NCBI GenBank assembly: GCA_965216795.1
Contig: OZ244196.1
Span: 2,650,368 to 2,714,367 of the forward strand
DNA from: Pseudomonadales bacterium
GTDB lineage: Bacteria > Pseudomonadota > Gammaproteobacteria > Pseudomonadales > UBA7434
DNA length: 64,000 bases
Reading direction: 5' to 3'
Below the pieces are notes generated by a model, which saw nothing but the letters and a program-made list of their open reading frames with translations, made no database searches and was not told the DNA's origin. Both the position numbers and the translations under genes were made by a program. Positions 4,114-50,504 of the stretch are shown piece after piece (within the stretch, counting starts at the first letter, position 1; every line of letters begins with the position of its first letter).

Positions 4114-4124
4114 GCGCTATAGTG

Positions 4125-4159: not shown

Positions 4160-4180
4160 CCGATGCAATGGCCCGGCGGC

Positions 4181-20161: not shown

Positions 20162-20342
20162 GGTTTTGTTCTCCAGGTTTGTTGGTATATGTTCTCGCAA
20201 GGGGGGCGCGATGGAATGAATACTGCCGCTCATCGGGTTGCGGAGCCACTTATACTTAATTAATTCGTTAGCTGTCTTGCGCGTGCTTAAATGGCTGGAT
20301 AAGTCTTTTTTGGCGCGCCCTGGACAGGTTTTTGGGGGTGAT

Positions 20343-29665: not shown

Positions 29666-32335
29666 TCAACTGCCGCTGGCGTTGTTCCAGCGCCTGCGCT
29701 GCAGCCGCAGCGCTGCGAGCACCAGGCCTGCCAGCAAGCTGGCGAGCCCCCAGGGTCCCATCGCGGGGACGTTTTTCCCGGCAAGATCGGGCACAAGCGG
29801 GTTGGAGCCCTGGCTGATTTCCTGGCCATCCGGGGTGCCATCGCCATCGGTGTCAGCATTGAACGGGTCTGTTCCGGCCAGTGCTTCGTCCGTAGCGCTA
29901 AGACCATCATGGTCGTGATCATTAAACAGCGGGTCAAAGCCGTTATCGACCTCAAACTTGTCGAGAATGCCGTCGCCGTCGGTGTCGTTATTGGTTGGGT
30001 CAGTGCCGGCGGTTTGTTCTTCCAGAGACGTGAGCCCGTCGCCGTCGGGGTCTGAGCTGGCGCTGTCGGCAACCAGCGGGTTCAGCCCGAACTGCACTTC
30101 AAACCCGTCTTCCAGCAGGTCGTTATCGGTATCGTTGTCACCCGGGTCAGTGCCGGCGGCCTGCTCCTGAAGGTTATTGAGGCCGTCATTATCGCCATCC
30201 AGTGATTGCTCGCCCGCTGCAAAGGGATCCAGGCTGTTGTCTGTCTCGAACACATTGAGCAGGCCGTCCCCGTCAATATCCATCTCAAAGATGTACGTCG
30301 AACCGGTATCGACGGCGACGCCATCGTCAAAATAGGCACCAACCAGTACCGTGTTTCCTGACAATGCGACGGTCGTGCCGAAGATATCATCAGGTGCAGC
30401 GTCTGTTGCTATGAGCTTTTGATGCTGGGTCCAGGCCTGGCCCTGCTTGATGAACACATAGGCCGAGCCTGCGTCGGTGGCCGCCGCGCCGTCTTGCCAT
30501 GCGCCGAATATCGCCCGGTCGCCATCGACTGCGACGCTTACGCCCAGTTCCGAGCTGGCGATGTCACTGGCCAGTAAAATATCCTGCTGCGTCCAGCTTG
30601 TGCCCGCGCGTTCATAGACATAAACAGCCCCTGCGCGTGGGGTAGCGCCTTCATCCCGTTTGAAAGCACCGACCATGGCGGTATCGCCGCTGACAGAGAC
30701 AGACAGTCCGAATAGATTGCCCGCAGCAGCATCGGAGGCGACCAGTTTTTGCTGCTCTGTCCAGGTCGCCAGGCTATTGGTAAAGACGTAAGCAGAACCC
30801 ACCAGGTCGCCGGTTTGGTGAGCACCCACGATAATCGTGTCGGCGTTTATAGAGACTGCGACGCCAAACAGGTCCTGCACAGCGCCATCACTTGCCGTGA
30901 GTATCTGTTGTTCGGACCAGCTGACCCCCGCGCGGGTAAAGACATAGGCCGCGCCGGTATCCGAAGCGGTGCTATCTTCGAATACCGCGCCCGCGACAAC
31001 GGTATCGCCCTCTAATGCGACTGCGCCTGCAAAATTGTCACCCGCGCCTGCATTGCTTGCGGTCAGCTTGGCTTGCTGCGTCCACACCCCCGCGTTGCGC
31101 ACAAACACGTAGGCAGCGCCAGAATCCGTGCCATCGTCGTCGTCTTTTGGCGCGCCAACGACAATCGTATCGCCACTAATATCGACGGCGGTGCCAAAGT
31201 TGTCATCAGCAGCAGCGTCACTGGCCACGAGTTTTGCCTGTTCGACCCAGGTGCCACCGCTGCGAACATAGACGTATGCCGCGCCTGAACCGGCGGCGAC
31301 ACCGTCTTCTTGCCAGGCGCCCACGACTACAGTGTCGCCGTCCATACGAACCTGGGTGCCAAACTGGTCTTCGAATGCTGCGTCACTGGCGACCAGTTTC
31401 TGTTGCAGCGGCGTGTCGTTCGGGTCGAGTGGGTCGGCGCCAAAGCTGACCTCGTTGCCGTCGGTTGTGCCGTCGCTGTCGGTATCAGGGTTTCGAGGGT
31501 CGGTCCCTGCCGATTGCTCCTGCAGGTTATTCAGGCCGTCGCCATCCGTATCCAGTAGCGCTTCGCCCGCTGCCCAGGGCAGAAAACCGTTGCTGAGTTC
31601 GAAGTCATCGAACAGGCCGTCTGCATCCGCGTCACTGCTTCCGCCTGCTGAGACAAAATAGTTATCGAAAGTCGTCTCTGCACTGGCAGACAGTGTTGTT
31701 GATAGTGCGATGACCGCGCCCAGTGGGTCAGATGACAGCAGGGCGTTGGTTGCAGACAGCGTTTCAAGAAGGACCGGGCTGCTACCGACAGGCAGTTCAT
31801 AGAGCCGGGCCTCCAGCTCGTCAATGCCGGCGCCGCTCCTTCGCAAAACAAGACGATATTGATTGCCAGCGTTGAGTGAGACCGTACCGGTGTCCAGCGT
31901 TGTGCCAAACGCATAGGTTGAGCCCGACTCGTGCACCAGCAGGAAAAACGTGCCGAACACCGTTGCGCGGTAATTCGCGTTGCCGGCGGCATTTGCCAGC
32001 GCCAGGCTGGTTGCAGAATTGCTACCCCAGTCGGTGAAATCGACCGAAGCGGTTGCCGTGTTGTAATTGCTGGCGGTGCCACGCGCATAAGCACTGTAGG
32101 GTGCCGAGCCGCCGGTGACACTCAGGCGGTAGCGAAATTCGCCCGCGTTATTCGGGTCGGCCGGGTAATCAATGGTGGTGGTGCCACTGGCCGCGTTGGT
32201 TTCAGTCCAGTTTGTTACAGGGCTTGTGCCGCTGTCGAAGTTTTCGTACTGCTGGGCAAGGGTGGGTAGCGACAGGCTGGCAAGAAGACTGGCGGCAAGC
32301 CATCGGGTAAAGCAGTAGCGCATTGAGATTCTCAC
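29666..32335 (-). CDS. Large exported FG-GAP beta-propeller / thrombospondin-type-3 Ca-binding repeat protein with an IPTL/PEP-CTERM-like anchor
   Basis: 889 aa. Signal peptide; repeated ~55-aa units (L.ASD.A..D.FG..V...GDT..VGA...D....SGAAYVF); DTDGDGL.N..E...GTDP repeats on both sides; C-terminus [27 protein letters not shown]. Confidence 0.8.
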
Positions 32336-32599
32336 CGGTTCGACTCCCTGGCTTCCTCATCACGGTGCTTTATCGATGCCCTTGGCAATGAGGAATGACT
32401 AGGTGACTGGTGCCCGGGGTGGGCAGGATGCCAGCCACTGGCCCGACCTAGGATAATGGGGTCGGGTTAGCGTGAAAAGCAGCTGGCCTCCGAAATCGGC
32501 TGGACAATGTAAAAAATGGGCCCGGATCAGCGGGGTTCCAGGCCATGGTGAGCAGTGCTTAAGGCCGTTGCTGCACTAATATGGGTCGCAGAGAGGTTG

Positions 32600-33424
32600 C
32601 TACCCTGACGGCTGGCAGTCAGCACAGCGGTAGATGCGCCGCGCGCCCGCTTCGCTGCGTTTGATCTTCGTGCCGCAAACGTGGCAGGGCAGGTTGGCAC
32701 GCCCAAACACCATGAACCTTGCCTGGGCGTGGTTCAGGCCCTCGTTGCGCAGCCAGCGATATTGCTTGTCGGGCAGTGTAACGCCGCCACTCTTATAGCT
32801 GCGATGGCTCACGCTGAGCGTCTGGCGGGCGAGTTTATTGAGCTGGTTCTGGTTGAGATCTTTGGGCCTGGCTGCAGGGTCGATGCCCGCGGCAAAGAGA
32901 ATCTCACTGCGCAGGTAATTGCCGAGGCCGGCCAGAAACTGCTGGTCGAGATACAGCGCCGAGAGCGAGCGTCCAGCAAACGCTTTACTGCGTAGTCGCT
33001 TCGCCACGTCCTGCCAGGTCAGTGCCGGGGCCAGGATGTCAGGGCCAATGCGTGCCAGAAACGGGTGCTCATCCAGCGCATCCTGTTGCCAGACGCTGAT
33101 ATCCGAGGCGCTGTATAGCAGTGCACTGTTTGCCGCAGTATGCAGGGCAAGCCTCAGCTGGCGCTTTGTGGCAGGTAGCTTGCCGCGTTTGCAGGTCTGC
33201 CATACGCCGTACAGTTGATTGTGCGAGTAAATGGCAAGCCCGTTATCAAAATGCGTCAGCAGCGCTTTGCCGCGCGTCTCTATATGCGTTACCCGGTGGC
33301 CTCGCAGCTGCGCAGCATAGCGCTTCAACCGGGGCAGGCCGAAGGCAATATCCTCGATAACCTGGTCTTTGAGTACTGCTTCGATCTTGTCGGCGGCGCG
33401 ACGAATCTCTGGGCCTTCAGGCAT
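32600..33424 (-). CDS. nei: Endonuclease VIII / Fpg-Nei family DNA glycosylase
   Basis: 274 aa. N-terminal MPEGPEIRR catalytic motif and a C-terminal zinc finger (CHVCGT...CADC). Confidence 0.8.
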   Translation of the reverse strand: MPEGPEIRRAADKIEAVLKDQVIEDIAFGLPRLKRYAAQLRGHRVTHIETRGKALLTHFDNGLAIYSHNQLYGVWQTCKRGKLPATKRQLRLALHTAANSALLYSASDISVWQQDALDEHPFLARIGPDILAPALTWQDVAKRLRSKAFAGRSLSALYLDQQFLAGLGNYLRSEILFAAGIDPAARPKDLNQNQLNKLARQTLSVSHRSYKSGGVTLPDKQYRWLRNEGLNHAQARFMVFGRANLPCHVCGTKIKRSEAGARRIYRCADCQPSG

Positions 33425-33566
33425 AAGATGTTCTCATCGGTGAATGCTAGAGGCTTGCCAGCGATGGAAGGCGGTGGCGGCCTGGCAGGTTTGCTGGGAA
33501 TTCTACGATGGCTGTGCTGAAATGGTTCAATGCCGTCAGTAAGCTCTATGTGAGGAATGCAGGGCT

Positions 33567-34280
33567 GTGTGGGATCATCTTATAACCTTGTCGTTGGGAC
33601 CACTGCTGCTGGCTCAGGGTTGGAAAGTGCGCCGCGACACACCGGTCCTGCCTGAGCCACCCGGGCCCAGAAGCGGGGAGCTGGGCGCAGGGCGACGGCT
33701 GAGCGTGCTCATCCTTGGCGATTCGGCCGCCGCCGGGGTCGGGGCAGATCACCAGGACGATGCATTGTCAGGGCAGATCGTGCAGCGCCTGCAATGTGAC
33801 TACACCGTCTCGTGGCGGCTGGCTGCACAGACCGGCGCTACGACCCTGTCGACGATCGATGACCTCGAGGCCATAGCGCCACAAAGGTACGATGTTATCG
33901 TCACCTCATTGGGCGTTAATGACGTGACCTCGGGGGTGGCGCTGTCACACTGGCTAGAGCGACAGCGCCTGCTGCGCGAGCGCTGTTTCCAACGTTTTGA
34001 TGCCGGGATGATCGTCAACGCAGGTCTGCCGCCGGTGCACGGGTTTCCGGCATTGCCACAACCGCTGCGCTGGTATCTGGGGCGCCGGGCCAGCCAATTT
34101 GATGTTGCCTGTGAACAGGCGCTCGAGCAGGAGCCTGCGGTGCGCTATTTGAGCCTGCGCTTTAGTGAAGAGATGTCACTGATGGCCAGCGACGGCTTTC
34201 ATCCTGGCCCGGAAGTCTATAGCCGCTGGGCTGAGCGGGTTGTTGATATTATCCGTGCTTGCATGCCGCCGACTGCCTGA
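33567..34280 (+). CDS. SGNH/GDSL hydrolase family protein
   Basis: 237 aa with a block I GDS motif (LILGDSAAAGVGA) and a GVND block. Confidence 0.7.
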   Translation: MWDHLITLSLGPLLLAQGWKVRRDTPVLPEPPGPRSGELGAGRRLSVLILGDSAAAGVGADHQDDALSGQIVQRLQCDYTVSWRLAAQTGATTLSTIDDLEAIAPQRYDVIVTSLGVNDVTSGVALSHWLERQRLLRERCFQRFDAGMIVNAGLPPVHGFPALPQPLRWYLGRRASQFDVACEQALEQEPAVRYLSLRFSEEMSLMASDGFHPGPEVYSRWAERVVDIIRACMPPTA

Positions 34281-34289
34281 GCGAGCACA

Positions 34290-35393
34290 TTAGTCCGCTA
34301 CGCGAAGCACGATCTTGCCTTCGACCGCGCGCTCCTCAATGAGCCGATGGGCTGCCGCCGCATCGGCCAGCGGCATGGTTTTCCACACCTGTGGCGCGAT
34401 CTTCCCGCTATTTGCCAGGTCGAACAGCGTCGCCAGGTCTTCGCGAAACCTGTGGGGTTGTTCTTCGCGCAAGCCAGTAATCAGGTAGAACGCCGTGGTT
34501 TTGTCAGCGTCGGGGAACAGCTTCCACTTCCATTGTTGCCAGTACCAGCGGGCGAACTCGCCGAGCAGGGCAGACTTGTCGCCAGCGCTGCCAGACAGCG
34601 AGTTCTTGTAGAAGCCATAGATAACCAGCTGGCCAGACTCACCCAGTGCCTGGTAGGAGCGCTTGAAGTTGGCGACACTGATCGCATCGAACACCGCATC
34701 CACACCGCGTTCATCGGTCAGTTGCCGGGTGCGCTCAACAAAGTCTTCTGTGCGGTAGTCTATTGGTACAACGCCCAACGACTGCACATAGGCGTGTTTC
34801 GCCGCCGAGGCCGTGCCGATCATATCCAGCCCTGCAAGTTTGCCAAGCTGCGCCAGCGCAGTACCCACGGCACCGCTGGCGCCATGAATCAATATCGTCT
34901 GGCCGGGCTTCACCTCGGCCAGCCTGTGCAGCATCTGGTAAGCCGTGGTGTAAGACAGAATCAGCGTCACCGCGGCTTCGTCGTCCAGGCCATCGGGTAC
35001 CGCAACCAGGCTCTCGGCTGGTAGTGTGGTGTATTCGGTGTAAGCCCCCCAGACGGTGAGCGCGGCAACACGCTGCCCGACTTCAAGGTCATCGACGCCC
35101 TCGCCGAGTTTGTCCACGACGCCGACCAGGTCGTAGCCGGGCGTTATCGGTGGCTCGCCCGGGGCTTCGGCGTAGATGCCTTTGCGCACCATGATGTCGG
35201 TAAACGAAGCGCTGGCCGTCAGCACCCGGACGCGAACTTCGCCCGCGGCAGGCTCCGGGAGTGAGTCTTCGACGACCAGTTGCAGCACATCGGCATCGCC
35301 GAACTCGCTGGCGACAATTTTCTGGAAGCCCTCGGCGGCGCTAATGAGTGGTAGTAGAGCGAGCAAGCATGCCGCGAGTATGGGATTTTTCAT
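34290..35393 (-). CDS. Exported MDR-superfamily quinone oxidoreductase / Zn-type alcohol dehydrogenase
   Basis: Start moved to ATG 35393 (MKNPILAACLLALLPLISAAEG signal). GEVRVRV..A..NF.D and HGASGAVG NAD(P)-binding motifs. The 90-aa upstream extension in the ORF track is not credible. Confidence 0.8.
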   Translation of the reverse strand: MKNPILAACLLALLPLISAAEGFQKIVASEFGDADVLQLVVEDSLPEPAAGEVRVRVLTASASFTDIMVRKGIYAEAPGEPPITPGYDLVGVVDKLGEGVDDLEVGQRVAALTVWGAYTEYTTLPAESLVAVPDGLDDEAAVTLILSYTTAYQMLHRLAEVKPGQTILIHGASGAVGTALAQLGKLAGLDMIGTASAAKHAYVQSLGVVPIDYRTEDFVERTRQLTDERGVDAVFDAISVANFKRSYQALGESGQLVIYGFYKNSLSGSAGDKSALLGEFARWYWQQWKWKLFPDADKTTAFYLITGLREEQPHRFREDLATLFDLANSGKIAPQVWKTMPLADAAAAHRLIEERAVEGKIVLRVAD

Positions 35394-35409
35394 GATTGCT
35401 AATTTCCGA

Positions 35410-36093
35410 TCAATCAATGCTGAGGTTTTTTGCGAACACCAACTGGACGCTGTTCGTATCATCGCCGGGCTTGTTGACGTGCTGCCATTGCAGACCGATT
35501 GTCGTGGCGGGCAGCCATGTCTCCGGCAGTTTCCCGCCAATAAAAAACCGGTTCTGGTCAAGGCCGCGGCGCACGCCGTTACGCATCGCATTGGCACTGT
35601 AGAAGTATTCGTTCCTGATAATCCAGTGAAGCTTTTTATCCTTTGTCTGGCCGCTGAGTTCAAGGCCGAGCCGTGGCCTCAGGCCAATCGAAGAAATGCT
35701 TTCAATGCGTCGCTGCTCTAGACGAAGTTTTAGCCGGGCAGTTGTGCTGCCCAGCTCGTATGCCCTGCCGATCTGTTGCCATGTTCTGTGCTCGAGGCTG
35801 GTGCCCGCTGGCCGGATGAAGTGGGCATCGTAGCCAAGGGCCCAGGTGTAATCGCCTTTGGTCCCAGCGACGAATGGCCTGAGTAGCGTTCGCTCGAGAT
35901 TCTGCACATCATCATTCCAGCGTAGCTGGATGTCGAGGTTGTAACTCGGTTTGCCTGGCTCGCTGTTGCGCAGTCCCAGCGTGGTCCACGCGCCAAGGTC
36001 TGTCTGTGCCCAGGCTGGGCTGGTTAGCACGCCCGATAGTGTGGTAAGCCAAAGTATGCGTGTTGCGATGTTTTTAACCTGGTTGTGACCCAA
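35410..36093 (-). CDS. Putative outer-membrane protein (DUF2490-like)
   Basis: 227 aa. Signal peptide (SPAWAQ), beta-strand-like alternation. The family call is from memory only. Confidence 0.45.
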   Translation of the reverse strand: MGHNQVKNIATRILWLTTLSGVLTSPAWAQTDLGAWTTLGLRNSEPGKPSYNLDIQLRWNDDVQNLERTLLRPFVAGTKGDYTWALGYDAHFIRPAGTSLEHRTWQQIGRAYELGSTTARLKLRLEQRRIESISSIGLRPRLGLELSGQTKDKKLHWIIRNEYFYSANAMRNGVRRGLDQNRFFIGGKLPETWLPATTIGLQWQHVNKPGDDTNSVQLVFAKNLSID

Positions 36094-36233
36094 TGCCTCT
36101 GCCTCTTCGTTGCTTTACTCTTTGTGCGCATTTGCCAGGCGTGGGGCGCGCTGTGAAGCGACGCTGAATACTGATATTGAGTGGTATTATGGAGCCCCAT
36201 CACCCACAGTATACGTTACTTCTATTATCCGTT

Positions 36234-36914
36234 ATGCACCCAACCCTGAATGCGCGTGTTTTTTGGGTAGTTATTGCATGTTGCGCTATCGCACCTTTGC
36301 CTGCTGTTGCTCTCGATATGGGTCTGGGGCTGGATAGTAGATACATTACCGAAGGTCGTGATAATACCGAGGGTCGTGGTATTGCCTACGCACAGCTTGG
36401 TATGGACGTCGACGGTACGCAGCTCCAGCTTTGGTATGCAAACGCCGGCGAAGGTAATTACCAGGAAGTGAACGTGGGCGCCCGTCGAGCCTGGGATGTT
36501 TCGGGGTTTGAACTTGGCCTGGGTGTTACATACCTGTCCGTCATTGATGCAGGTCTGGATGATCTTGAGCTGGATGCCAGCGCACGCAGGCATCTTTCGA
36601 AGAATTTTGAAGCAGGTGTTGGCCTGACCTATAGCCACCAAAGCCAGGGTGTCTACGGCATGCTCGAGCTTGTTTACAGCCGCCGCGGTGAGCGTGTAAT
36701 CGCAGAGCCCTATATCAGCGTGGGCATTAATAGCGGCTATGTCGTTGAGGAGCACGCAGGCCCCGACAACGTTCAGGCGGGGCTCAGCATCAGGGATAGT
36801 CGCACAGAACAGCTGGTGCTGCACTTTGCCTTTGTTGAACCAGTCAGGGCGCGATCATCTGATTCGCTTGTCCGGGCTCAATGGGCGAGCCTGTCCTACA
36901 TCAAGCGCTTTTAA
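36234..36914 (+). CDS. Putative outer-membrane beta-barrel protein
   Basis: Start at ATG 36234 (signal MHPTLNARVFWVVIACCAIAPLPAVA). Alternating pattern; ends ...SYIKRF. Confidence 0.4.
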   Translation: MHPTLNARVFWVVIACCAIAPLPAVALDMGLGLDSRYITEGRDNTEGRGIAYAQLGMDVDGTQLQLWYANAGEGNYQEVNVGARRAWDVSGFELGLGVTYLSVIDAGLDDLELDASARRHLSKNFEAGVGLTYSHQSQGVYGMLELVYSRRGERVIAEPYISVGINSGYVVEEHAGPDNVQAGLSIRDSRTEQLVLHFAFVEPVRARSSDSLVRAQWASLSYIKRF

Positions 36915-36977
36915 ATCAGGCGGCAACCCGCAGTGAGGAGTGCGGCGGTTCGTGGCCCCGTCTATACCAGGCCCTGC

Positions 36978-37829
36978 CTATTCCAGGCCATAGAACGGCG
37001 CACCGGTACCCTCATCGCGGAACCATTTGGTGATAATGGTCTTGCGCCCCTCTTTGACCGGCATACCCTCGTGGATCGTAGCGGGGTTCAGTGTGCCTTC
37101 GGCTGTCAGGTTAAACCATGCGACGGCGCGACCCAGCCTGGGTGCGATGTCGATATCCAGTTCGGTAAATCGCGTCGCGCCGCCTTGTTTGGGTACTTCG
37201 ATGTAGACCATGAACGTCCAGGTACGCTGGCCGGGATGAAGCAGGGTCTGACGTGCCTCTTGCATGACGCGGGGGCCAAAGTAATCGGCATGTGCCTTGA
37301 ACTCTTCGCCAACGTCGTACACCTGGGCCTGTATCAGCTCTGAATAGCCCAGTTGCACGCCCAGCCGTCGTGAAATCGCCCGGTCGACGTCGGCTACGGC
37401 ATCGCCATAATCGGACGTAAGGAAGCAGGTTTTACTGGTGCGCACCGGGTCCTCGGCGCCGGTGGCGACCACCGATCGCCTCGCGTGCCGCACGCTGATC
37501 TCAACCAGCGCATCGCACTGCTCAGGGCTCAGGAAGTTATCGATCACAACCAGTGGGAAGCGCCCACCGGTATCGACGAACTGTGCTTCGGGGGCTTCGG
37601 CAACGAACTCGCTGCGCGTGAGCCAGGCCGGATAGTTCTGGTAGGCGGTCATCTCCAGCTCGAGGCCGGGGTAGCTCGCACCCATCGCCTCCACGATGGC
37701 AGGTTCAGCGTAGCCATTGTGCCTGAGCGTGTCGCGAACCAGGCAGGGTACCCGCCCGGTGCTCATGCAGTTGTCGACCCACTGCTGGACTTCGTGTTCT
37801 ACCTGTCGTTTCAAAGCGTTATGCACCAA
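36978..37829 (-). CDS. 2OG-Fe(II) oxygenase (prolyl 4-hydroxylase-like)
   Basis: 283 aa. HADYF (HxD) and ATIHEGMPV (distal His) motifs in a P4H-type C-terminal domain. Confidence 0.65.
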   Translation of the reverse strand: MVHNALKRQVEHEVQQWVDNCMSTGRVPCLVRDTLRHNGYAEPAIVEAMGASYPGLELEMTAYQNYPAWLTRSEFVAEAPEAQFVDTGGRFPLVVIDNFLSPEQCDALVEISVRHARRSVVATGAEDPVRTSKTCFLTSDYGDAVADVDRAISRRLGVQLGYSELIQAQVYDVGEEFKAHADYFGPRVMQEARQTLLHPGQRTWTFMVYIEVPKQGGATRFTELDIDIAPRLGRAVAWFNLTAEGTLNPATIHEGMPVKEGRKTIITKWFRDEGTGAPFYGLE

Positions 37830-38330
37830 ATAAGGTCAGCCATAAGGCGACGAATAACCTTGAGTCGTCGTTTTACGATTGGTTGAAGCGAGAGGTTCAT
37901 TCGCGTGAGTGCGCCTGTCGGCCACGCGATGGATGCCTTGTGCCTTACGAGCGTTCCATTTGATAGCCTGGCATTGTCGTTACCCACAGCGACGGCTGTC
38001 TGACCTCGGCAGGAAATGCGGTTCGAACGCGCAGGCGTTCGCGCAAGCCACTCAACACGCTACAGAGTGTTGTTCGTGGCTCCGCCAAGGCGGTTGGTAT
38101 TGGACTTCAGGAAAGGAGACAAAATGGATACAACTGGATTCCAATCTTGATCTAAGGATAGACCCGGGTGCGGGTTTATCCAATCGCAAAAGGCGGCGAT
38201 CGTGAGTCTCTGGATGACCGAAGGAGCAAATTCAGGGAGGCGGCCGACCTGAATTGCAAAGACTTGCTGGCCTTGCGCGTCTTCGGGGCAGGGCATATGT
38301 CATGCCCGGGTATTGGACGGGTAATCGGTA

Positions 38331-38369
38331 AGGTGCATTTGGGGTTTGGCCTGACCGGACCCCAAATGC
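38331..38369 (-). terminator. 13-bp-stem hairpin just downstream of DUF3604 gene 1
   Basis: gtgcatttggggt-ttggcctgaccgg-accccaaatgcac, 15 nt after the stop at 38384. No strong U-tract. Confidence 0.45.
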
Positions 38370-38383
38370 ACCCGAAGCATGGA

Positions 38384-40336
38384 TCAGTTTGGATCAAACC
38401 AGATAGGCGAGGTATAGGCACGTTCCTGGCCAAACTTGGGTGACTGTTCTGGCGCGGCTTCACCGAAGTGTTTCTCGTCAATGGTAGTCCATCGCGGTGT
38501 AGGAATCTCGAGTACCCTTGCGTAGTAAAACGCGCGAAGGTTTGGGTCAAAATCAGGGTCACGCCACACCACGCTCAGTGACGTGTCACCAATGGTGTTG
38601 GTATAACTGGCCGATGCGACATCGACGGTATTGCCCACCGGCTTGACCTTGTTCCGTTTGATTTTGCGACCGTCAGAAGCTGCGACGTTGTATACCTGCT
38701 CCTGGGTGTTGCCTTCGGCATCGACCCAGCCCTTGATGATCTGGATGCGATCGAGATTGGCGCCGATCGGGTCTTTCAGTGCTGAGACTATAAACGTGGG
38801 TGCCTTGTCGCCGCCCGGTGACTGGAGGGTTCCCCCCATGGGCACGCCATTGCGATAGGCATGGGTAACATAATCGTGGCGATCGACCGTGCTGTGGTCA
38901 TAGTCCCAGCCACCAAAAAAGCGCACCGTCATGCGTGGCCCGGTAGTCGCGTAGACTTCTTTGCGCTGCATCGCATCAAACAGCGCCTTGCGGGTGTTCT
39001 CGCGAGCCCAGACCGCTGCGTAGCCCGAAGATGCAGTCTCCCAGTGATGAACACTGATGCCAGAACCCGCATCGTCTTCAAAAAAGCTCTTATGCGCTCG
39101 CCCGGGCATGGGCTCGACCGACGTCATTTTGCCGAAGAAGTTATCTTCATCGCTGGTGGCAAGGCCGGTGTGCGAGTCGGTGCTGCCGATCATGCCGAAC
39201 TTGTAGGGGTTAACCCCGATTTGTTCTTCGAGCGCCAATCCATTTTTGAGCGCAGATCGCGCGTACTCAAACTCGAGCATGTTGTCTTCTTTTGCGGCCA
39301 GGAAAGACAGGTTGCTCATATCCCAGGTTTCATAATCGGCAAACTCGTCGCTGGGCGATAAAACCGGGTGTGCCTCGCCATCGCCCTTGATCTGGGTCAC
39401 CTCAATAATGGGCTCGTATTTCACGCGCAATGCGGCTTGCTCGGCGGTCAGGGGCTCGCCGGAAAAGGTGGTTTCGGCAAACATCAGGCCGTTGCTGACG
39501 TTGCCGTTGTGCGGAATCGACAGAACCCTGCCGCCGGTTGTGGATTCATAATTGGCCAGATATGCCCAGAGATCCTCCGGGTTGCCGCTATCCATTGATG
39601 AAAAGGGTACAACCTGTCCGGTTGTTTGCGCATCGTCGGCAAACAGCACATTGCGGTGCAGGTTGTTACCGCCCGGCATCGATGTGTATTCATAGCCAAT
39701 AAACGCCGTAAATGTGCCTGGCCGGTTATAGGCATCGGCCGTAGCGCCGACTTGCTTCCAGACAGACTCGACCACCGGGGCCGGTACCTCAAGGCCCTGC
39801 AGGGAGCGGATATGCTCAACGGTGATCCAGGAGCTCCCCTGGGTATAAATCTCGGGGTTTTCAGCGGTTGTTGCGCCCATGGACATGAGGCCGAACTCCA
39901 TCACAACGAGTTGGTGCTTTCCCTCGGCTACGTATTTGGCCCAGCGTTTGCCCAGGTTGGTCTCCGCGATATCGGGTGAGCCGGCAAATACCTTGGGGAA
40001 AATGCCCATAAACTCGGCGTGGTCCGACACCATCAAAAAGTCCAGTGGCCTTGCGAGTTTGGCCTTGACGCCCGTCTGGGAGGTGACCGTTTCGCCCATC
40101 GCAAAGCGATACGCATCTGCTGGCGTAATCGTGCGGTTGCCGAAGGTAAAAGCATCCGGAGACTGGTTGGTATGCAGGTGGGTATCGCCCCAAAAAACCT
40201 GGGCCGGAAAATCGTTGGCAACCGGCGGTGAGTATTCATGTTCTTTGGCCTGTGAGCCAGCCGTGGCAAGCACCAGGGCTGTAGAACACAGGAAGCTGCA
40301 AATTACTTTGATCGAACGCGCGCGCATATTAGACAT
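38384..40336 (-). CDS. Exported DUF3604 family protein (paralogue 1)
   Basis: 650 aa. Signal peptide; FWGDTHLHT metal-type motif; conserved C-terminus WRDPDFDP...YYARVLEIPTPRW...SPIW. Confidence 0.8.
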   Translation of the reverse strand: MSNMRARSIKVICSFLCSTALVLATAGSQAKEHEYSPPVANDFPAQVFWGDTHLHTNQSPDAFTFGNRTITPADAYRFAMGETVTSQTGVKAKLARPLDFLMVSDHAEFMGIFPKVFAGSPDIAETNLGKRWAKYVAEGKHQLVVMEFGLMSMGATTAENPEIYTQGSSWITVEHIRSLQGLEVPAPVVESVWKQVGATADAYNRPGTFTAFIGYEYTSMPGGNNLHRNVLFADDAQTTGQVVPFSSMDSGNPEDLWAYLANYESTTGGRVLSIPHNGNVSNGLMFAETTFSGEPLTAEQAALRVKYEPIIEVTQIKGDGEAHPVLSPSDEFADYETWDMSNLSFLAAKEDNMLEFEYARSALKNGLALEEQIGVNPYKFGMIGSTDSHTGLATSDEDNFFGKMTSVEPMPGRAHKSFFEDDAGSGISVHHWETASSGYAAVWARENTRKALFDAMQRKEVYATTGPRMTVRFFGGWDYDHSTVDRHDYVTHAYRNGVPMGGTLQSPGGDKAPTFIVSALKDPIGANLDRIQIIKGWVDAEGNTQEQVYNVAASDGRKIKRNKVKPVGNTVDVASASYTNTIGDTSLSVVWRDPDFDPNLRAFYYARVLEIPTPRWTTIDEKHFGEAAPEQSPKFGQERAYTSPIWFDPN

Positions 40337-40596
40337 AGCCAGCTCTCACCTGGGTTGGGTTGGGGGCATTTGCAGTGCCACTCAAGGGTAAATCTGCGGC
40401 CAATTCTAACGGATTTTCAAAACAAGAAGGAGTTCGTTTCTTTCATTTATTCCTCAGGCCGGGCGCTTGAAAAAGCACCGTATCTCTAGCAGCGATATCT
40501 GTGGGCTTTATCCGTGAAGGCCATTCAATGAACGGGTGCAGGGAAGGCGAATTCAGGTTACTCTAGGCGGAATTGGAGATACGGCAGGTATGATCA

Positions 40597-42441
40597 ATGC
40601 GAACGCCGACTGGAACGCCAACAAAAGCCAAAAAATGCTACGCACGTTCATTGGAATACTCCGCTCTTATTTTTACCACGTTACTGGTTAGCGGCGCGAG
40701 CATCGCGCTAGACACCGATGGCGATGGGCTTTCGAATACCGTCGAAACCAACACGGGCACCTTTGTTTCAGCTTCCGACACCGGCAGTGATCCGGTGGTT
40801 GCAGACACCGATATCGATGATTTTAATGACGGCATTGAGGTGTCATTGGGCACCGACCCGAATTCCGCACTGAATAGCCCGCGTGAAACGCACCTTGAGC
40901 CAGCTTACCCCGAAGTCTTTGGCCGCTTTGGTTTTAGCGTCGCGGTCGATGTCGACACGTCCGGCGCTTGCCAGATAAGGTTGGGCGCTAGTAGCGGTGT
41001 TGCCCAGATTTTTACAAGAGTAGGGGCGCAATGGTTGGAGCAAGGCCAGCTATTCACTGGCGGACTGGCCACCGGCCTGTTTTGCTGGAGTATCGCTTTG
41101 TCGGGTGACAGTGCCGCGATTGGCGCTCCGGGCGATGCGACCGGAGGCGTGGTTTATATTTTTGACCGGACGGGTTCCACCTGGCCATTCACCTCGACTC
41201 CTCTCGTTCCCGGCGATTCAGCAGGTGGCGATAGCTTTGGCTATGCCGTTGACATCGATGGTGACACGCTGTTCGTGGGCGCTCCGTTTGATGATGACAA
41301 TGGCAGCGCATCGGGCTCGGTCTACGTTTTCACGCGAACCGCCGGGGTTTGGAGCGAGCAAGCCAAGATTACCGCTGGCGATGGCACTGCCAACGACAAT
41401 TTTGGTCAAGACCTTGAATTCTCGGCAGGTTCGCTGATTGTCGGTGCGCCTGGTGATTCTGATAGTGCCAGCAATGCTGGGTCAGCTTACATTTTCACCG
41501 GCTCGGGGAGCAGCTGGACACAGCAAGCGAAACTTTCAGCGAGCACGCCCGCTGCCGATGATGCCTTTGGCACTGCAGTCAGTATTTCAAGCGATAGCGT
41601 ACTGATCGGCGCTCCTGGAGATGCTGCGAATGGCGCAGGTGCAGGTGCTGCCTATGTGTTCACGGGCTCCGGTTCATCCTGGGCCCAGCAGCAAAAATTG
41701 TTGCCCGGCGACGGTGCCAGTAATGATGTGTTTGGCGATGATGTTGCGCTCTGGGGAGAGGTTGCCGTCGTTAGTGCACCCTTTGATGATGGCCCCACCG
41801 ATTCAGGTTCAGCCTATGTTTTTTTACGCTCTGGCACAGCGTGGGTGCAAATTGATAAGTTCAAGCCCGCCGCTAGTGGGCAATCCGACAATTTTGGAGA
41901 GCGAATCGCTATTGATAATGGCACTGTAGCGCTTGGCGCTCCTACGCGGCAAGGTGCAACCGGCGCAGCTTATATCGTTGATCTGGACATCGATAAAGAT
42001 GGTTTGCTTAACGCGGTAGAGAGTGGCACTGGCATATTCGTATCGCAATTCGACACGGGGACTGACCGCCTCGACGCCGACAGCGATGAAGACAACGTCA
42101 TCGACGGCGATGAAACGCAAATTCATGGCACTGACCCGAATGCCAATGATACCGATGGGGACGGCATCCTTGATGATGCCGAGATTGCAATTGGTTGGAA
42201 CCCTTTGTCAGATGACATTGATAACGATGGCCTGACCGATGCTGAAGAGTCAGGCCTTGGTACTGACCCGCTACTTGCTGACACCGACATGGATGGCATT
42301 AGCGATGGTGATGAAATCGCGAGCGGCACGGACCCACTCATAGTTGATAACGGTACAAAGAGTGTTCCAGCAATGGGTGCGATGGGTTTATTTGCATTGA
42401 TGTTGGGGTTATTGTTTCTCGGCGTGAGGGTGAAGGCTTGA
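40597..42441 (+). CDS. Exported FG-GAP beta-propeller / TSP3-repeat protein with an IPTL/PEP-CTERM-like anchor (paralogue of 29666-32335)
   Basis: 614 aa with the same repeat types (GD...FG.AV.I.GDT..VGAP.DD....SGS.YVF; DTDGDG). C-terminus [26 protein letters not shown]. Confidence 0.8.
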
Positions 42442-43276: not shown

Positions 43277-44002
43277 TCAAGAGGTTGCAGGCCTGCCGGC
43301 GCTTGCTTTGTGTCCCAGAAGTAGAAGCCATATACCCAGTACCAGATGAGTAAAAAAAGGCATAGGCACGTTCACAGGTACGGGAAGGATTTGTGCAGTC
43401 GCCTGGGTGCCCTCGGGGGTAAATGAGCGACCCCAGCCAAACCAGCTCAAGACGTTGTTTGGAACGGGTACAGCAGATCCAAAAACGGGGGCGACATCTG
43501 GATCTTGCAGAGTAAACGTGGAACCATCGAAGTGAATGCTTGAAGCAAACCAGATCGACTCGTTATTGTAAGTGAAAAAAGCGACATAGCGCAGAACATC
43601 CCACTGATTCACGCCGGCGTTGTCGCGAATGGAAAACTCGCTGTGTGACAGGTGCTGCGGCTCTCCATCAATCGTTAGCGATGTCAGCACTATCTCATAG
43701 TCATAGTGAAATGACGGCCCGCCCGTATTGGAAGAGCTGCCCTCGATCTCGGTTTCAGCCACAATCTCTAGTGAATCAACGCTCACTGAAATAGTAAAGG
43801 GTATCGAATGAGCTGGGTCGGAACTGTGGCCCGCGGGCGGCTCAGGCGTAAAAATGCCATCGTTGACATACCCGCTCCATTCGTATTGCAAAAGTCCAGC
43901 GCATGCGATGTGGCTGGCAAAGGTGAAGAGGAGCAGTACAGCTACATTTCTAAGCATGTTGCCTATTGCTGTTCCCAGCGATACAGCTTTTATTATTCTC
44001 AT
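43277..44002 (-). CDS. Hypothetical exported protein with a PEP-CTERM-like anchor
   Basis: Start probably ATG 44002 (AGGGAG RBS). The C-terminus is LPVPVNVPMPFFTHLVLGIWLLLLGHK: motif, then a hydrophobic helix. Confidence 0.5.
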   Translation of the reverse strand: MRIIKAVSLGTAIGNMLRNVAVLLLFTFASHIACAGLLQYEWSGYVNDGIFTPEPPAGHSSDPAHSIPFTISVSVDSLEIVAETEIEGSSSNTGGPSFHYDYEIVLTSLTIDGEPQHLSHSEFSIRDNAGVNQWDVLRYVAFFTYNNESIWFASSIHFDGSTFTLQDPDVAPVFGSAVPVPNNVLSWFGWGRSFTPEGTQATAQILPVPVNVPMPFFTHLVLGIWLLLLGHKASAGRPATS

Positions 44003-44152
44003 GGCCATCTCCCTGTTCATTCACCTGGTGAGTGATCCAGGATTCAAACTAAACGAACGTTACCAGGCTTTCAAGTGACTTGGCCATTGGTGTGCGGCGC
44101 TTTCCCGTGTGGTTCCTGATTGGCACATAGGCAGCACTTGTAGTCTGCCTGA

Positions 44153-44453
44153 TTCCAGCCGCAATAACCCCATGAATAGTAAAGAGATTGGTGGGTATCA
44201 GGACTTGCTACGTGCCCTGGGGGTAATCCTGGGACCTGCCGATGACTACTTGGCCCATGGCTATGAGTCCAGCGAACAATACGTATCAGTCCCCATAAGC
44301 CTAAGCAATGTGAGAGGTTATCCGAAGGGCTTAATTGAGGCTTACCCCGACCGAAACATATCCGAACCTGCTGCCTGAGATTTCCTGGCCCGAGTGTTGC
44401 TGCGCTATGGACATCAAGGTCGGGGTGGGGTGGGCTGCCGAACCTGGGCCGAA
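44153..44453 (-). repeat. attP-like repeat unit, copy A (degenerate tRNA 3'-half fragment 44189-44269 plus L and R arms)
   Basis: L arm ttccagccgcaataaccccatgaatagtaaagagat. The tRNA-like core carries two 18-nt insertions. The R arm is colinear with copies C and D, including CCGAAM pairs at 44351/44362 and 44438/44449. Confidence 0.8.
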
Positions 44454-44680
44454 CCGCGCAATCAGGATAGCATGTCGTCATCTCAACTATCGGAAGTGGC
44501 CAGGCGCACGTTAGGTAACCCGAGTCTTCAGACAGAATACTCCCCGTTTCCAGTGCGCTCACCAAAACATCATGGGGGTCACACGGCTGTGGCCGCAGCT
44601 AACTGGACTATCTGAAAAGACAGTTGATTTTCTTCGCTAAAGAAGAACAATGTAGGCTTTCGCTCGCCACGAGAGAAACT

Positions 44681-46603
44681 ATGCAAAACAACCAGCTATG
44701 CGCTGTGTGGAGCCCCAATTCCCCCTCAAGGGACGATTTCGTTCTTTTTACTGCAATGATTGTTATATCACTCAGTGTTCTACTTACTGGGTGCGAGAGG
44801 CTTGATGATCCGTCGGTCCAGCCAGGTTTCGTTCAGGGCCAGGCTGTCAAATCTATGCAGCGTACGCCCGCACCTAAAAATACACAGAGAAATCTGTACT
44901 TTGGCGATTTGCATATACATACCAGCCTGTCAACAGACGCCTATGTTTTTGGCGTTCGCTCGCAGCCTGAAGACGTCTACACCTTTGCAAAGGGCGGCGT
45001 CATTGAGCATGCAGTGGGCTATCCTATCCAGATCGACCGTCCTCTGGATTTCGCTGCGGTAACTGATCACGCCGAGTACCTGGGTCAGGCTCGTTTGGCG
45101 GGCCTTGATATACCTACGAACATGCACCCGCTGCGCGATGTGCTTGCTGGCGGCAATGTCATTAGCGTGACAAAGCAGTGGTTGATTTCCAGTGCATTTG
45201 TGCTTCGAAAAGGTGCCGGCTATGGCGTCGACGAAATTGATCTGTCTGTGAATCGCGCTGCATGGCAGCAAGTTATTAACGCCGCAGAGGCGGCTAATGT
45301 ACCGGGAGAATTTAGCGCATTTATCGGCTATGAATGGACGTCGTTTGTCGATAACAATCCGTCGATTCACATTCATCGTAACGTTATATACCGTGGCAGT
45401 GATGTGTCTGATCTGCCGTATAGTGCACTTGATAGCAACCGGCCAGAAGATCTATGGAGGTTTCTTGAGGGTGAGCAGCTCGCTGGAAAAGAAGCGATCG
45501 CTATTTCACATAATGCGAACATTAGCGCCGGCAATATGTACTCGGTCGTGGATAGTGACGGGGAGCCGTTAACCGACGCATATGCACGATTGAGGAATCG
45601 CTATGAGCCAATTAGCGAGATCCTGCAGATCAAGGGCGCCTCAGAGACGCACCCGATGATGTCGAATCTCGATGAGTTCGCAAGCTTTGAGCTGCTGTCC
45701 AACAGTCCACCGGAAGACCAGCTGCAAGGCTCATACGCACGCAGCGGCTTGCGTCTTGGTCTGGAAACTTCAGCCCGGCAGGGATTTAACCCGTATCAAT
45801 TCGGTGTGATAGGGTCCAGTGACAGCCATAATGCCAGCTCTCCTTCTCAGGAGAATCGTTATCATGGCAAGCTGCCCGTGCTGGATGGAACCGCTGGCTT
45901 GCGCACCAACAAAGCACTGCTAATACCTGAGTTGATCAACCCCGCTATGCGCTGGGGATCGGGAGGGCTGGCAGCAGTTTGGGCGGAAGAGAACACGCGC
46001 GGTGCTGTGTTTGATGCGCTACGCCGCCGTGAGTGCTATGCAACCTCGGGTCCCAGAATCAGTGTGAGGCTATTTGGTGGCTGGCAGTATACCCAGGCCA
46101 TGCTTGACACTGGGAATGTTATTGAACAAGCCTACAAGCACGGTGTTCCAATGGGTGGGCAGCTGGGCCCAGCACCCAAAGACGGTGCCCCGACCTTTAT
46201 GATTATCGCGGCAAAAGACCCTGAAGGCGCAAACCTTGACCGTGTGCAGATTATTAAAGCGTGGGTCGATTCTGTCGGTGAGAGTCACGAAAAAGTTTAC
46301 GACGTGGCCGCAGCCGGTGGGCGGACAGTGAGCAAAGAGACAGGAAAACTAGAGCCTGTGGGTAACACGGTTGACGCAGCTGAGGCTAGCTACAGTAATA
46401 CAATCGGTGCGGCTTCGCTGGCGGCGATTTGGCGAGACCCTGATTTCGATGTGTCCAGTGAAGCTGTTTACTATGCGCGGGTCATCGAAATTCCCACGCC
46501 ACGATGGTCGACATACGATGCTAAATTGTTAGGCGATGAACCTATGAATCCAGCGTGGATTCAGGAGCGTGCCATTACATCGGCGATCTGGTATTCGCCT
46601 TGA
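44681..46603 (+). CDS. Exported DUF3604 family protein (paralogue 2; lipoprotein-like)
   Basis: YFGDLHIHT motif and C-terminus WRDPDFD...YYARVIEIPTPRW...SAIWYSP. Possible lipobox LLTGC. Start uncertain: TTG 44624, ATG 44681 or ATG 44756. Confidence 0.8.
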   Translation: MQNNQLCAVWSPNSPSRDDFVLFTAMIVISLSVLLTGCERLDDPSVQPGFVQGQAVKSMQRTPAPKNTQRNLYFGDLHIHTSLSTDAYVFGVRSQPEDVYTFAKGGVIEHAVGYPIQIDRPLDFAAVTDHAEYLGQARLAGLDIPTNMHPLRDVLAGGNVISVTKQWLISSAFVLRKGAGYGVDEIDLSVNRAAWQQVINAAEAANVPGEFSAFIGYEWTSFVDNNPSIHIHRNVIYRGSDVSDLPYSALDSNRPEDLWRFLEGEQLAGKEAIAISHNANISAGNMYSVVDSDGEPLTDAYARLRNRYEPISEILQIKGASETHPMMSNLDEFASFELLSNSPPEDQLQGSYARSGLRLGLETSARQGFNPYQFGVIGSSDSHNASSPSQENRYHGKLPVLDGTAGLRTNKALLIPELINPAMRWGSGGLAAVWAEENTRGAVFDALRRRECYATSGPRISVRLFGGWQYTQAMLDTGNVIEQAYKHGVPMGGQLGPAPKDGAPTFMIIAAKDPEGANLDRVQIIKAWVDSVGESHEKVYDVAAAGGRTVSKETGKLEPVGNTVDAAEASYSNTIGAASLAAIWRDPDFDVSSEAVYYARVIEIPTPRWSTYDAKLLGDEPMNPAWIQERAITSAIWYSP

Positions 46604-46622: not shown

Positions 46623-46722
46623 CTCCAGCCGCAATGACCCTATGAATAGTAAAGAGAATGGTGGGCCCACCAGGACTTGCTACGTGCCCTCGGGGTAAAC
46701 CTGGGACCTGCCGATTATGAGT
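46623..46722 (-). repeat. attP-like repeat unit, copy B (L arm + tRNA 3'-half fragment; R arm missing)
   Basis: ctccagccgcaatgaccctatgaatagtaaagagaa, then the tRNA 3' half with the 18-nt T-loop insertion (46680-46697). Homology stops abruptly after ...gattatgagt. Confidence 0.85.
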
Positions 46723-49245: not shown

Positions 49246-49340
49246 AGCCGACAGGTTTGTTGGCGCTCGAGCTGAGCGGGCGATAAAAGTAATCAGTTCA
49301 GGACAGTCTTGGCCGTATTGATCCCTGAGGGTACGCCAGA

Positions 49341-49575
49341 TTGAAAAATGAATGGTGGGCCCACCAGGACTTGCTACGTGCCCTCGGGGTAAACCTGGGA
49401 CCTGCCGATTATGAGTCCAGCGAACAATACGTGCCCATCTCCATAAGTCTAAGAAGTGGGAGGGGTTATCGGCGGGGTATCTCTGGGGCTTTCTTCGACC
49501 GAACCATATCCGAACCTGTCGCCTTGAGAGTCGCGTGCCTGAGTGTCACCCCGCTGAGGGCATGTGGCCGAAGGC
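49341..49575 (-). repeat. attP-like repeat unit, copy C (truncated L arm + tRNA 3'-half fragment 49353-49417 + R arm)
   Basis: tRNA 3' half with the 18-nt insertion (49374-49391). The R arm is colinear with A and D, with a ~20-nt internal deletion near its end. Confidence 0.85.
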
Positions 49576-49790
49576 TCTCTCATTCTCCTAAGTTGTTGAT
49601 ATCCTGGGCTAATTAACTCCTTCCCCATCCCCTGAGATTGCCTCAGAAGCAGCATTGGCTGCGTCCTGCAGCGTGCCAGTGGACAGGTGAGTCGACTGCT
49701 GTACGCCTGTTGGCTACATATTGACGGCTAGCTGCGAATTGAAGATACTGGTTGCACCCCTTGGCTCCGAATGACAACGGAGCACCTCCC

Positions 49791-50504
49791 ATGCCTGCCA
49801 CTAACGTGCCTGCGTCCATTACGGTTGTTAGACAGGCGAGCCCGATTTTCTTGAGCGCCCAGCTGCTGCGCAGGGACTTCCTGGCGATTTTGCTGCTTGT
49901 GAATGTCTCGATGGCGCAGGCGTATGTTGAAGCGCCGCGCGTGATGTCTGCCCAATTGACAACGTATCAGTCCAGTATCAGTTATCTGATACACAATGAT
50001 TCGGATTGGCTTCTGGACCAGCTCGGTATGCAGTTTGCTGGCGTCCTGCCACTGGGCACCTATGCACTCGATTTATCTTATGATTGGGATTCGTTGCGCG
50101 ATATCTATGATGATGATCCCACATTCGATGAGATCATGGGCCCCCAGTGGGATCTTTTCGTCAGGTTTTGGTTCGATTCTCGTGATGATCCTCTCTATCC
50201 CGGTGAGTCTTTCACCCTGACGATCGATTTCAATAGCGCATTGCTGGCTGCAGAATATGGTGTTACGGATATCAGGCAGCTGAACACTGCTTTCTACTCC
50301 GGAGTGCTGGGCGGTTCTAACGCAGAGCATGGCGTTGAAACCCCTGTCGAGTTGCTGGAGGTGCCGGTGTTCCCAGAGCGTATCGTCGTCCCTCTGCCGG
50401 GGTCTTTCGGATTGCTACTTGCCCCGATGTGTCTTTTGGTTTACCTGCGGCGCCCATGGAGTCGGGCGCACCGCTCACAGAGTCGGCTGCTCCAGCCGCA
50501 ATAA
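49791..50504 (+). CDS. Hypothetical exported protein with a VPLP-type (PEP-CTERM-like) anchor
   Basis: Start at ATG 49791 (GGAG RBS). C-terminus VVPLPGSFGLLLAPMCLLVYLRRPW. The stop codon lies inside the L arm of repeat D. Confidence 0.55.
   Translation: MPATNVPASITVVRQASPIFLSAQLLRRDFLAILLLVNVSMAQAYVEAPRVMSAQLTTYQSSISYLIHNDSDWLLDQLGMQFAGVLPLGTYALDLSYDWDSLRDIYDDDPTFDEIMGPQWDLFVRFWFDSRDDPLYPGESFTLTIDFNSALLAAEYGVTDIRQLNTAFYSGVLGGSNAEHGVETPVELLEVPVFPERIVVPLPGSFGLLLAPMCLLVYLRRPWSRAHRSQSRLLQPQ

Follow-up and report, generated by a model that had tools for sequence, protein, structure and literature searches.

The stretch of 64,000 nucleotides analyzed here, called the window below, comes from a Pseudomonadales bacterium (contig OZ244196.1, positions 2,650,368 to 2,714,367) and encodes two related proteins that end in what we call a VPAMG tail: a short motif, a hydrophobic helix, and basic residues. 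We put the probability at roughly 60% that these tails (the last 27-36 residues) are a tripartite sorting signal of the exosortase type, belonging to a class outside the curated libraries and served by a short exosortase. The likeliest enzyme, judging by sequence, would be an ortholog of a family of 177-223-aa exosortases encoded beside yebC and sister to XrtH, XrtX, and XrtM, and we infer that such an ortholog is present in the window's own genome. The signal is sharply defined, apparently uncurated, and common in marine gammaproteobacteria. A preliminary description of this stretch had held that its proposal of a sorting domain would fall if the tails scored as ordinary transmembrane helices; such a helix does not explain why the tail recurs on unrelated proteins elsewhere, where it is gene-linked to an exosortase.

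The two propeller proteins and their tails

Both genes were confirmed in the window sequence with the coordinates, lengths, and C-termini first assigned to them, while the word "giants" proved overstated for proteins of 889 and 614 aa. Their parts are as follows.

29666-32335, minus strand: gene for protein 1, an 889-aa open reading frame (ORF) from GTG 32335, stop codon 29666-29668
32255-32323, minus strand: signal peptide of protein 1, 23 residues and then QQ, read from the sequence; the N-terminus is hydrophobic
31619-32254, minus strand: N-terminal domain of protein 1, unassigned and all-beta, ~210 aa (residues ~24-235 in the numbering of the 885-aa call)
31409-31618, minus strand: N-side TSP3 calcium-binding repeats of protein 1 (Pfam TSP3_bac; alignment to protein 2)
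30278-31408, minus strand: seven-blade FG-GAP_2 beta-propeller of protein 1 (seven Pfam stretches, structure model, integrin alpha fold matches)
29777-30277, minus strand: C-side TSP3 repeat array of protein 1 (Pfam TSP3_bac)
29669-29776, minus strand: tail of protein 1 (motif, helix, basic cluster), 36 aa, modeled helix 857-880
40597-42441, plus strand: gene for protein 2, 614 aa; an identical sequence is public as P0121
40708-40881, plus strand: N-side TSP3 repeats of protein 2, downstream of the signal peptide (aa 1-37) (Pfam; paralog alignment)
40882-41985, plus strand: FG-GAP_2 beta-propeller of protein 2 (six Pfam stretches)
41986-42357, plus strand: C-side TSP3 repeat array of protein 2 (Pfam TSP3_bac)
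42358-42438, plus strand: tail of protein 2, 27 aa, with a weak basic cluster (R..K)

The public gene call for protein 1 is 885 aa long and starts at ATG 32323 (P0001, 100% identical). The two proteins are paralogs that align collinearly over 634 aa (39% identity), starting at the first TSP3 repeat and ending with the tail, and both follow the order signal peptide, TSP3 repeats, seven-blade FG-GAP propeller, further TSP3 repeats, tail. FG-GAP_2 (PF14312; gathering score 23) was found in seven stretches of protein 1 (366.7 bits, E 4e-112) and six of protein 2 (253.2 bits, E 1e-76), and TSP3_bac (PF18884; cutoff 25) in six (76.4 bits) and five stretches (70.6 bits), respectively. An AlphaFold model of protein 1 shows the propeller and the TSP3 arrays with confidence (predicted local distance difference test, pLDDT, 70-95) together with a terminal helix at residues 857-880, and the headpieces of integrin alpha subunits are its closest folds in the PDB (E 1e-15 to 1e-12). 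The paralogy and the FG-GAP blades flanked by TSP3 repeats, originally read by eye, are thus borne out. Both are most likely Sec-exported, calcium-binding, integrin-like propeller proteins. Protein 1 has an additional N-terminal domain relative to protein 2, as had been described, with a length of ~210 rather than ~230 aa. Its only detectable relative is that of the ortholog P0002 (53% identity); no match was found in Pfam, NCBIfam, or PDB sequences, and its modeled confidence is low (pLDDT below 50 in the full-length model and 35 when modeled alone).

The tails of both proteins read K[NS]-VPAMG-x-[WM]-G-L-x-A-L followed by a helix and basic residues, with the motif starting 34 (protein 1) and 25 (protein 2) residues before the C-terminus. 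Helix hydropathy is 2.15 and 2.47, respectively, and the basic ends are RLQRRR in protein 1 and a weaker RVK in protein 2. A DNA pattern for V-P-A-M-G-x-x-G-L/F-x-x-L/F has two matches in the window, where 100 shuffles predict 0.00; because the proteins are paralogs, common descent explains this pair. Stronger evidence comes from the orthologs, across which K[NS]VPA[MI]Gx[WIM]GL.AL stays constant as the helix drifts. A related metagenome contig (L001) carries both of them ~1.5 kb apart in the order DUF3604, protein 1 ortholog, two small genes, protein 2 ortholog, DUF4197, with 62% and >90% identity to the window proteins. Of this motif, the four orthologs and paralogs all share K, V, P, A, G, G, and L, and they vary in the helix and the end. 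The string "VPAMG" was not found in any paper in our literature search.

Curated models and the wider distribution of the tail

Tails were scored within the whole protein and alone against the curated models of NCBIfam release 20.0 (E<=10). The nearest model was IPTL_CTERM (TIGR04174), whose alignment to the protein 1 tail spans all of its positions (1-27 of 27) and puts V-P-A-M-G-P-W-G in register with I-P-T-L-S-E-W-G; its scores of 12.7 bits for the whole protein and 18.4 bits for the tail do not reach the cutoff of 20.5, and it did not match protein 2, whole or as a tail. On the protein 1 tail, midcut_by_XrtH scored 20.9 bits (cutoff 45) and MYXO-CTERM 11.2 bits (cutoff 20), and the protein 2 tail drew only a chance-level LPXTG match. 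Neither window tail was matched by PEP-CTERM (TIGR02595), VPLPA-CTERM (TIGR03370), VPAMP-CTERM (TIGR04513), or GlyGly-CTERM, and the tail of the P0002 ortholog (NVPAIGTIG...) had no curated match. Seven representative VPAMG tails from metagenome-assembled genomes (MAGs) fell below every curated cutoff as well, with IPTL_CTERM nearest at 11.2-15.4 bits or without a match. IPTL-CTERM is therefore the nearest curated model, but by the curated test the VPAMG tail is not a member. The label "IPTL-CTERM-like rather than classical PEP-CTERM" given in the preliminary description was accordingly right about PEP-CTERM and, for IPTL-CTERM, right about likeness and not about membership, the sorting-domain matches being sub-threshold throughout. 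As to its statement that the IPTL enzyme is not established, a qualification is in order: NCBIfam includes exosortase H (XrtH, TIGR04177), which NCBI names "IPTLxxWG-CTERM-specific", and a "midcut-by-XrtH" family. The pairing is computational; our literature search found no experimental paper on it, one mention of IPTL-CTERM for an S-layer protein, and "exosortase H" only in a tool preprint.

These scores bear on a first alternative, in which the tails are divergent but true IPTL-CTERM signals handled by XrtH proper and the curated model is simply too narrow. The full-length alignment, with P, W, and G in register and a score of 18.4 against 20.5, fits this idea, as does the touch of midcut_by_XrtH. 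It fits poorly with the lack of any IPTL_CTERM match to protein 2 or its ortholog and with the 11-15 bits or none obtained for the seven other VPAMG tails; the enzyme data given below count against it further and leave it unlikely.

A protein search with the tail alone (30 candidates) gave no match because the word index is blind to short, drifting tails. A DNA-motif scan of a genome collection listed at least 120 matches, so that the census is a lower bound; the source genome is not among the matches listed. Matches were filtered for tails that are in frame, hydrophobic, and 18-45 codons from a stop. Viral contigs, serving as a null, gave 21 pattern matches, about the chance expectation, with one poor pass through the filter (1/21). 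Among the matches listed, at least 17 are genuine C-terminal tails, 14 of them from marine MAGs or single-amplified genomes (SAGs) labeled almost without exception Cellvibrionales or Pseudomonadales; the remaining three come from a deltaproteobacterium, a Hydrogenedentota, and a Comamonas. Several genomes carry more than one: four tails lie within 8 kb on one contig (L067) and two on another (L061), and pairs of contigs from single MAGs (L033 with L069, L085 with L105) give at least two each in Co_bin_195 and REMEI108 bin.3. The window itself holds two.

Conservation extends to positions left free by the pattern. In the list of 31 distinct sequences, of which about 23 are genuine tails, Lys(-2) is found in 20, Asn(-1) in 14, and Ala(+10) in 19, and both window proteins have all three residues. 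With the tails removed, 22 carriers fall into at least nine unrelated groups (198 of 231 pairs without BLASTP similarity), and nearly all begin with a signal peptide as judged by inspection and hydropathy rather than a dedicated predictor. Passengers include FG-GAP with TSP3 (L061, like the window proteins), TSP3 alone, and an HExxH protein, and six carriers have no Pfam match. Conversely, propeller homologs elsewhere have varied C-termini: some lack any tail, others end in a different helix-plus-Arg tail (e.g., P0020, P0031, P0044, P0084), and P0090 has VPLPLW. Haft lists eight attributes of tripartite C-terminal sorting domains (bioRxiv 10.1101/2023.06.07.544157), and the VPAMG tail shows seven of them, among them the motif, helix, and basic cluster, the signal peptides, the unrelated carriers, and the existence of propeller homologs with no VPAMG tail or a different one; the eighth, several carriers per genome, is seen in other genomes.

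This distribution also bears on whether the tail is a plain, uncleaved anchor that would make the window proteins tail-anchored periplasmic proteins. The absence of any curated sorting-domain match at cutoff and the mere two basic residues at the end of protein 2 agree with that view. A plain anchor, however, needs no invariant motif of 8-12 residues common to unrelated proteins across genomes and leaves linkage to an exosortase with a Cys/Arg/His site unexplained; we regard it as very improbable.

Two variant tails were seen near genes of the VPAMG system, one at 1977-2690 on the minus strand of L081, ending ...EVSMMGGLGLSILFACLGLVGLRLKSKK, and one on a TSP3 protein 8.7 kb from an exosortase (L163, 1241-2245, plus strand), ending ...YVPMLPSIGFGLLSMLLAAVSLNANRKR; the scan pattern may have been narrower than the motif itself. 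A contig from a MAG labeled Rhodospirillaceae (L051) has its VPAMG tail in common with L061 from Cellvibrionales UBA1969, together with two flanking genes whose products (262 aa and 329 aa) have near-identical C-termini; L051 may be mis-binned.

A short exosortase encoded near VPAMG-tailed genes

On contig L033 a gene for a 187-aa membrane protein (3683-4246) lies 2.2 kb from a VPAMG-tailed gene, and its product passes the exosortase/archaeosortase signature TIGR04178 with 52.9 bits against a cutoff of 23. No named subfamily cutoff is reached (score/cutoff: XrtH 59/86, XrtX 64.3/170, XrtM 64.6/125, XrtF 43/90, XrtY 35/160). The protein belongs to a family of 33 homologs of 177-223 aa that are 48-68% identical and all come from marine samples; PF09721 is precomputed on most of them. 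Cys96, Arg137, and His156 are invariant in 25 aligned sequences (contexts VVEGCDALRI, N..RIS, and FHH), and Asn134, in the same N..RIS context as the Arg, is likewise kept. A profile search at full sensitivity placed the family within a continuum of short exosortases, with six representatives at E<=1e-30 and 782 at E<=1e-10, and the ten nearest library representatives are also below every named-subfamily cutoff.

In 11 of the 13 examined contexts with sufficient flank, the exosortase gene stands divergently beside yebC. A VPAMG-tailed gene was found 0.6-3.5 kb from it in seven independent contigs (L033, L143, L145, L147, L156, L161, and L164), in each case encoding a Pfam-less protein of 373-402 aa that ends KNVPAMGAFGLAALFGGLVAVAARLRRRVS. 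Enzyme and tail also occur together in single genomes, namely Co_bin_195 (L033 and L069) and SAG AM-377-L22 (L163 and L066). Other polytopic neighbors in the MAG loci were considered as sortases and ruled out, being Lnt, a CDP-alcohol phosphatidyltransferase, and an SLC13-like transporter.

Enzymes of lipid head groups are associated with anchoring by archaeosortases. The CDP-alcohol phosphatidyltransferase is encoded at a contig end ~0.4 kb from a VPAMG tail (L069, 492-1298, minus strand) and resembles the archaeal "protein sorting system archaetidylserine synthase" only very weakly (22 bits vs 200); its position beside the tail is probably a coincidence. Four contigs share a conserved cluster beside the exosortase (L143 11171-17206, L145 12780-19420, L147 11544-18491, and L164 11475-18028) that comprises the VPAMG-tailed protein, a ~250-aa Pfam-less protein, a TonB-dependent receptor, an outer membrane protein (OMP) beta-barrel, and in some form a 2OG-Fe (2-oxoglutarate/iron) oxygenase. 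The VPAMG protein of this cluster may be a dedicated substrate that is associated with a system for uptake at the outer membrane.

The linked enzyme argues against XrtH proper as the partner of the tails. Short exosortases near the linked family do often score best on XrtH (54-77 bits vs cutoff 86), as a divergent IPTL-CTERM/XrtH pair would lead one to expect. The sole enzyme found linked to VPAMG tails nevertheless fails XrtH and scores alike on XrtX and XrtM, and the Prokaryotic Genome Annotation Pipeline (PGAP) gives the family member P0134 only a generic name. The nearest signal (IPTL) and one of the nearest enzymes (XrtH) agree, and the simplest reading is a sister pair to IPTL-CTERM/XrtH.

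A further possibility is that there is no dedicated system and that a general PEP-CTERM or VPLPA exosortase (XrtA- or XrtD-like) tolerates VPAMG among other VP-type tails. Genes with VPLPAGIY... or VPVPAAAW... ends lie in among the VPAMG genes of the MAG loci, and the window has four further proteins, all without a Pfam match, whose C-termini combine a VP-type motif with a helix and basic residues:

19466-20419, minus strand: VP-type-tailed protein, ends ...QVPVPPGILLFASALGGLGFMRRS
43277-44020, minus strand: VP-type-tailed protein, ends ...NVPMPFFTHLVLGIWLLLLGHK
46933-49245, plus strand: VP-type-tailed protein, ends ...TVPLPFWLPLILLMGATITYRLSAR
49752-50504, plus strand: VP-type-tailed protein, ends ...VVPLPGSFGLLLAPMCLLVYLRR

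Scored alone, the first of these tails passes PEP_CTERM (16.8 vs 16) and comes near VPLPA (20.9 vs 25.35), and the other three have no curated match. This variety of VP-x-x tails would suit a tolerant enzyme. However, the PEP_CTERM and VPLPA models miss the VPAMG tails, the motif with its flanking Lys-Asn and G-L-x-A-L is far more sharply conserved than a tolerated variant requires, and the enzyme to which VPAMG is linked time and again is another, short exosortase. Several of the neighboring tails pass the VPLPA-CTERM model (26-29 bits vs cutoff 25.35), and because this model passes the neighbors and misses the VPAMG tails, the two classes can be separated within one genome. VPAMG is thus a class of its own rather than a blurred form of VPLPA, and we think it improbable that a general exosortase accounts for the tails.

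Glycine-rich motifs such as VPAMGGIG, with G-G directly before the helix in many MAG tails, recall GlyGly-CTERM signals cut by a rhombosortase. This last alternative is extremely unlikely, given that GlyGly-CTERM matched none of the tails at E<=10, that no rhomboid-like gene was seen either in the window or at the loci with VPAMG tails, and that the window tails have no G-G and the linked enzyme is an exosortase.

Several observations weigh against a dedicated VPAMG signal and short exosortase in this organism. The window holds no exosortase, its polytopic ORFs being AbgT, MFS (major facilitator superfamily), and KefC. No family member could be traced to the source contig among the 33 homologs and 10 near representatives, although this reflects 236 scored candidates and does not show absence. 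The basic cluster of protein 2 is weak, and the variable positions of the window tails (P-W, A-M) differ from the dominant MAG forms (G-I, A-F). In roughly half of the contexts of the enzyme gene (L148, L150-L155, L163, and L165) there is no VPAMG gene within 10 kb; the neighbors there are housekeeping genes (GDPD, ygfZ, sdhE, nadB, rpoE, rseA), and missing linkage in some contexts is expected if the substrates of the enzyme are dispersed. Finally, VPLPA-type tails also occur near the enzyme (1.3 kb in L147, 9.5 kb in L145), so it may not be specific for VPAMG tails. GC content in the enzyme and tail loci is 0.31-0.47 and that of the window 0.58; one enzyme member at 0.55 (L166) comes close to the window, and we count it in favor of the dedicated system.

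A more detailed version of the dedicated system, which we hold tentatively and at somewhat less than even odds, is that VPAMG-CTERM and the yebC-adjacent exosortase form an undescribed many-to-one sorting system of marine Cellvibrionales/Pseudomonadales that operates alongside VPLPA-CTERM within the same cells. The window propellers would be its substrates in a lineage of higher GC, and VPAMGPWG would be an intermediate between IPTLxxWG and VPAMGxxG that records how signal and enzyme diverged together from an XrtH-like ancestor. The mechanism can be drawn by analogy with PEP-CTERM/exosortase and PGF-CTERM/archaeosortase (bioRxiv 10.1101/2023.06.07.544157). After export, the helix would retain the protein in the inner membrane with its basic end in the cytoplasm. 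The small polytopic exosortase, with its Cys/Arg/His site, would recognize VPAMG at the outer face and remove the helix, and the new C-terminus would probably be transferred to an acceptor. The propeller and TSP3 array would then be displayed on the cell surface, where they might act in adhesion or ligand binding, a role suggested by the FG-GAP/TSP3 passenger. For the window proteins we infer cleavage, attachment, surface location, and an adhesin role.

Window context and comparison with known systems

The other features of the window that stood out are these.

38384-40336 (minus strand), 44624-46603 (plus strand), and 59796-61694 (minus strand): DUF3604 paralogs
44153-44376, 46623-46722, 49317-49563, and 50490-50718: four direct repeats
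53178-53254, minus strand: tRNA-Met gene

DUF3604 adjoins a propeller gene both in the window and in L001 (7698-9647), and it is also found 9 kb from the short exosortase in L143 (18917-20549). At the start of each direct repeat the 3' half of the nearby tRNA-Met gene is duplicated; over 45 nt the copy at 50.49 kb is identical to the gene, and the other three copies contain an 18-nt insertion. Together the repeats split a stretch of lower GC (0.49-0.55) into segments of one or two genes, holding DUF3604, a 770-aa tailed protein, a 250-aa tailed protein, and TetR with an MBL-fold (metallo-beta-lactamase) protein. They look like serial att-site scars or a tRNA-derived repeat, and no integrase was seen. 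At 16831-19367 (plus strand) an ORF for a sigma factor of the extracytoplasmic function (ECF) type precedes one for a 660-aa protein; this protein has a single membrane helix and a von Willebrand factor A (VWA)-like region that resembles "marine proteobacterial sortase target protein" weakly (45.7 bits, far below 551.65).

Exosortase systems are widespread and have barely been studied experimentally; their signal/enzyme pairs have so far been defined by curation, and new signal classes turn up from time to time. With a new signal and a candidate enzyme of ~180 aa, annotation could flag surface proteins that are now "hypothetical" in abundant marine gammaproteobacteria, and for the window it would predict surface display of two integrin-like, calcium-binding propeller proteins. 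So compact an enzyme-substrate pair would be useful for testing how exosortases recognize and process their targets, and VPLPA and VPAMG in one cell offer a natural test case for sorting specificity.

Among known systems, IPTL-CTERM (TIGR04174) with XrtH (TIGR04177) is alike in its tripartite tail, [IV]-P start, G before the helix, and, in protein 1, W-G; the linked enzyme is also short (~180 aa; the XrtH model has 158 positions), and XrtH is among its three best models. It differs in that VPAMGxxG with Lys-Asn in front replaces IPTLxxWG, the tails reaching 18.4 bits at best and the enzyme 59 bits against the cutoff of 86. PEP-CTERM with XrtA (EpsH) has the same general layout (signal peptide, passenger, short motif, helix, Arg/Lys cluster), an enzyme of the same superfamily (PF09721, TIGR04178) with a Cys/Arg/His site, and one enzyme for many substrates. 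The VPAMG tails, however, lack a P-E-P motif and a PEP_CTERM match, and their linked enzyme is ~180 rather than ~300-500 aa long, with its gene next to yebC in a housekeeping neighborhood instead of an exopolysaccharide (EPS) locus. VPLPA-CTERM (TIGR03370) starts with V-P and occurs in the same genomes, often in neighboring genes, but its model passes those neighbors (26-29 vs 25.35) and misses the VPAMG tails. VPAMP-CTERM (TIGR04513) is by name identical in the first four signature letters, V-P-A-M, yet it matches no VPAMG tail at E<=10, and its sole weak match is the VPLPLW tail of P0090 (14.1 vs 32).

In PGF-CTERM/archaeosortase A of Haloferax volcanii, a homologous Cys/Arg/His enzyme couples removal of the C-terminal helix to the attachment of a lipid (bioRxiv 10.1101/2023.06.07.544157). 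This is the best experimentally supported relative of the mechanism proposed for VPAMG tails, although it is archaeal, with another motif and another enzyme subfamily. As for the passengers, the seven-blade FG-GAP fold of protein 1 resembles the integrin alpha propeller (best matches alpha4, alphaX, alphaM, and alphaV), whereas identity is at most 16% and there is no beta-subunit partner. The DxDxDG calcium-binding TSP3 repeats of the window proteins are shared with CglD and MtsC/D, which function in Myxococcus adhesion, but with CglD and MtsD the repeat regions alone match, at 66 bits (cutoff 400) and 54 bits (cutoff 800), respectively.

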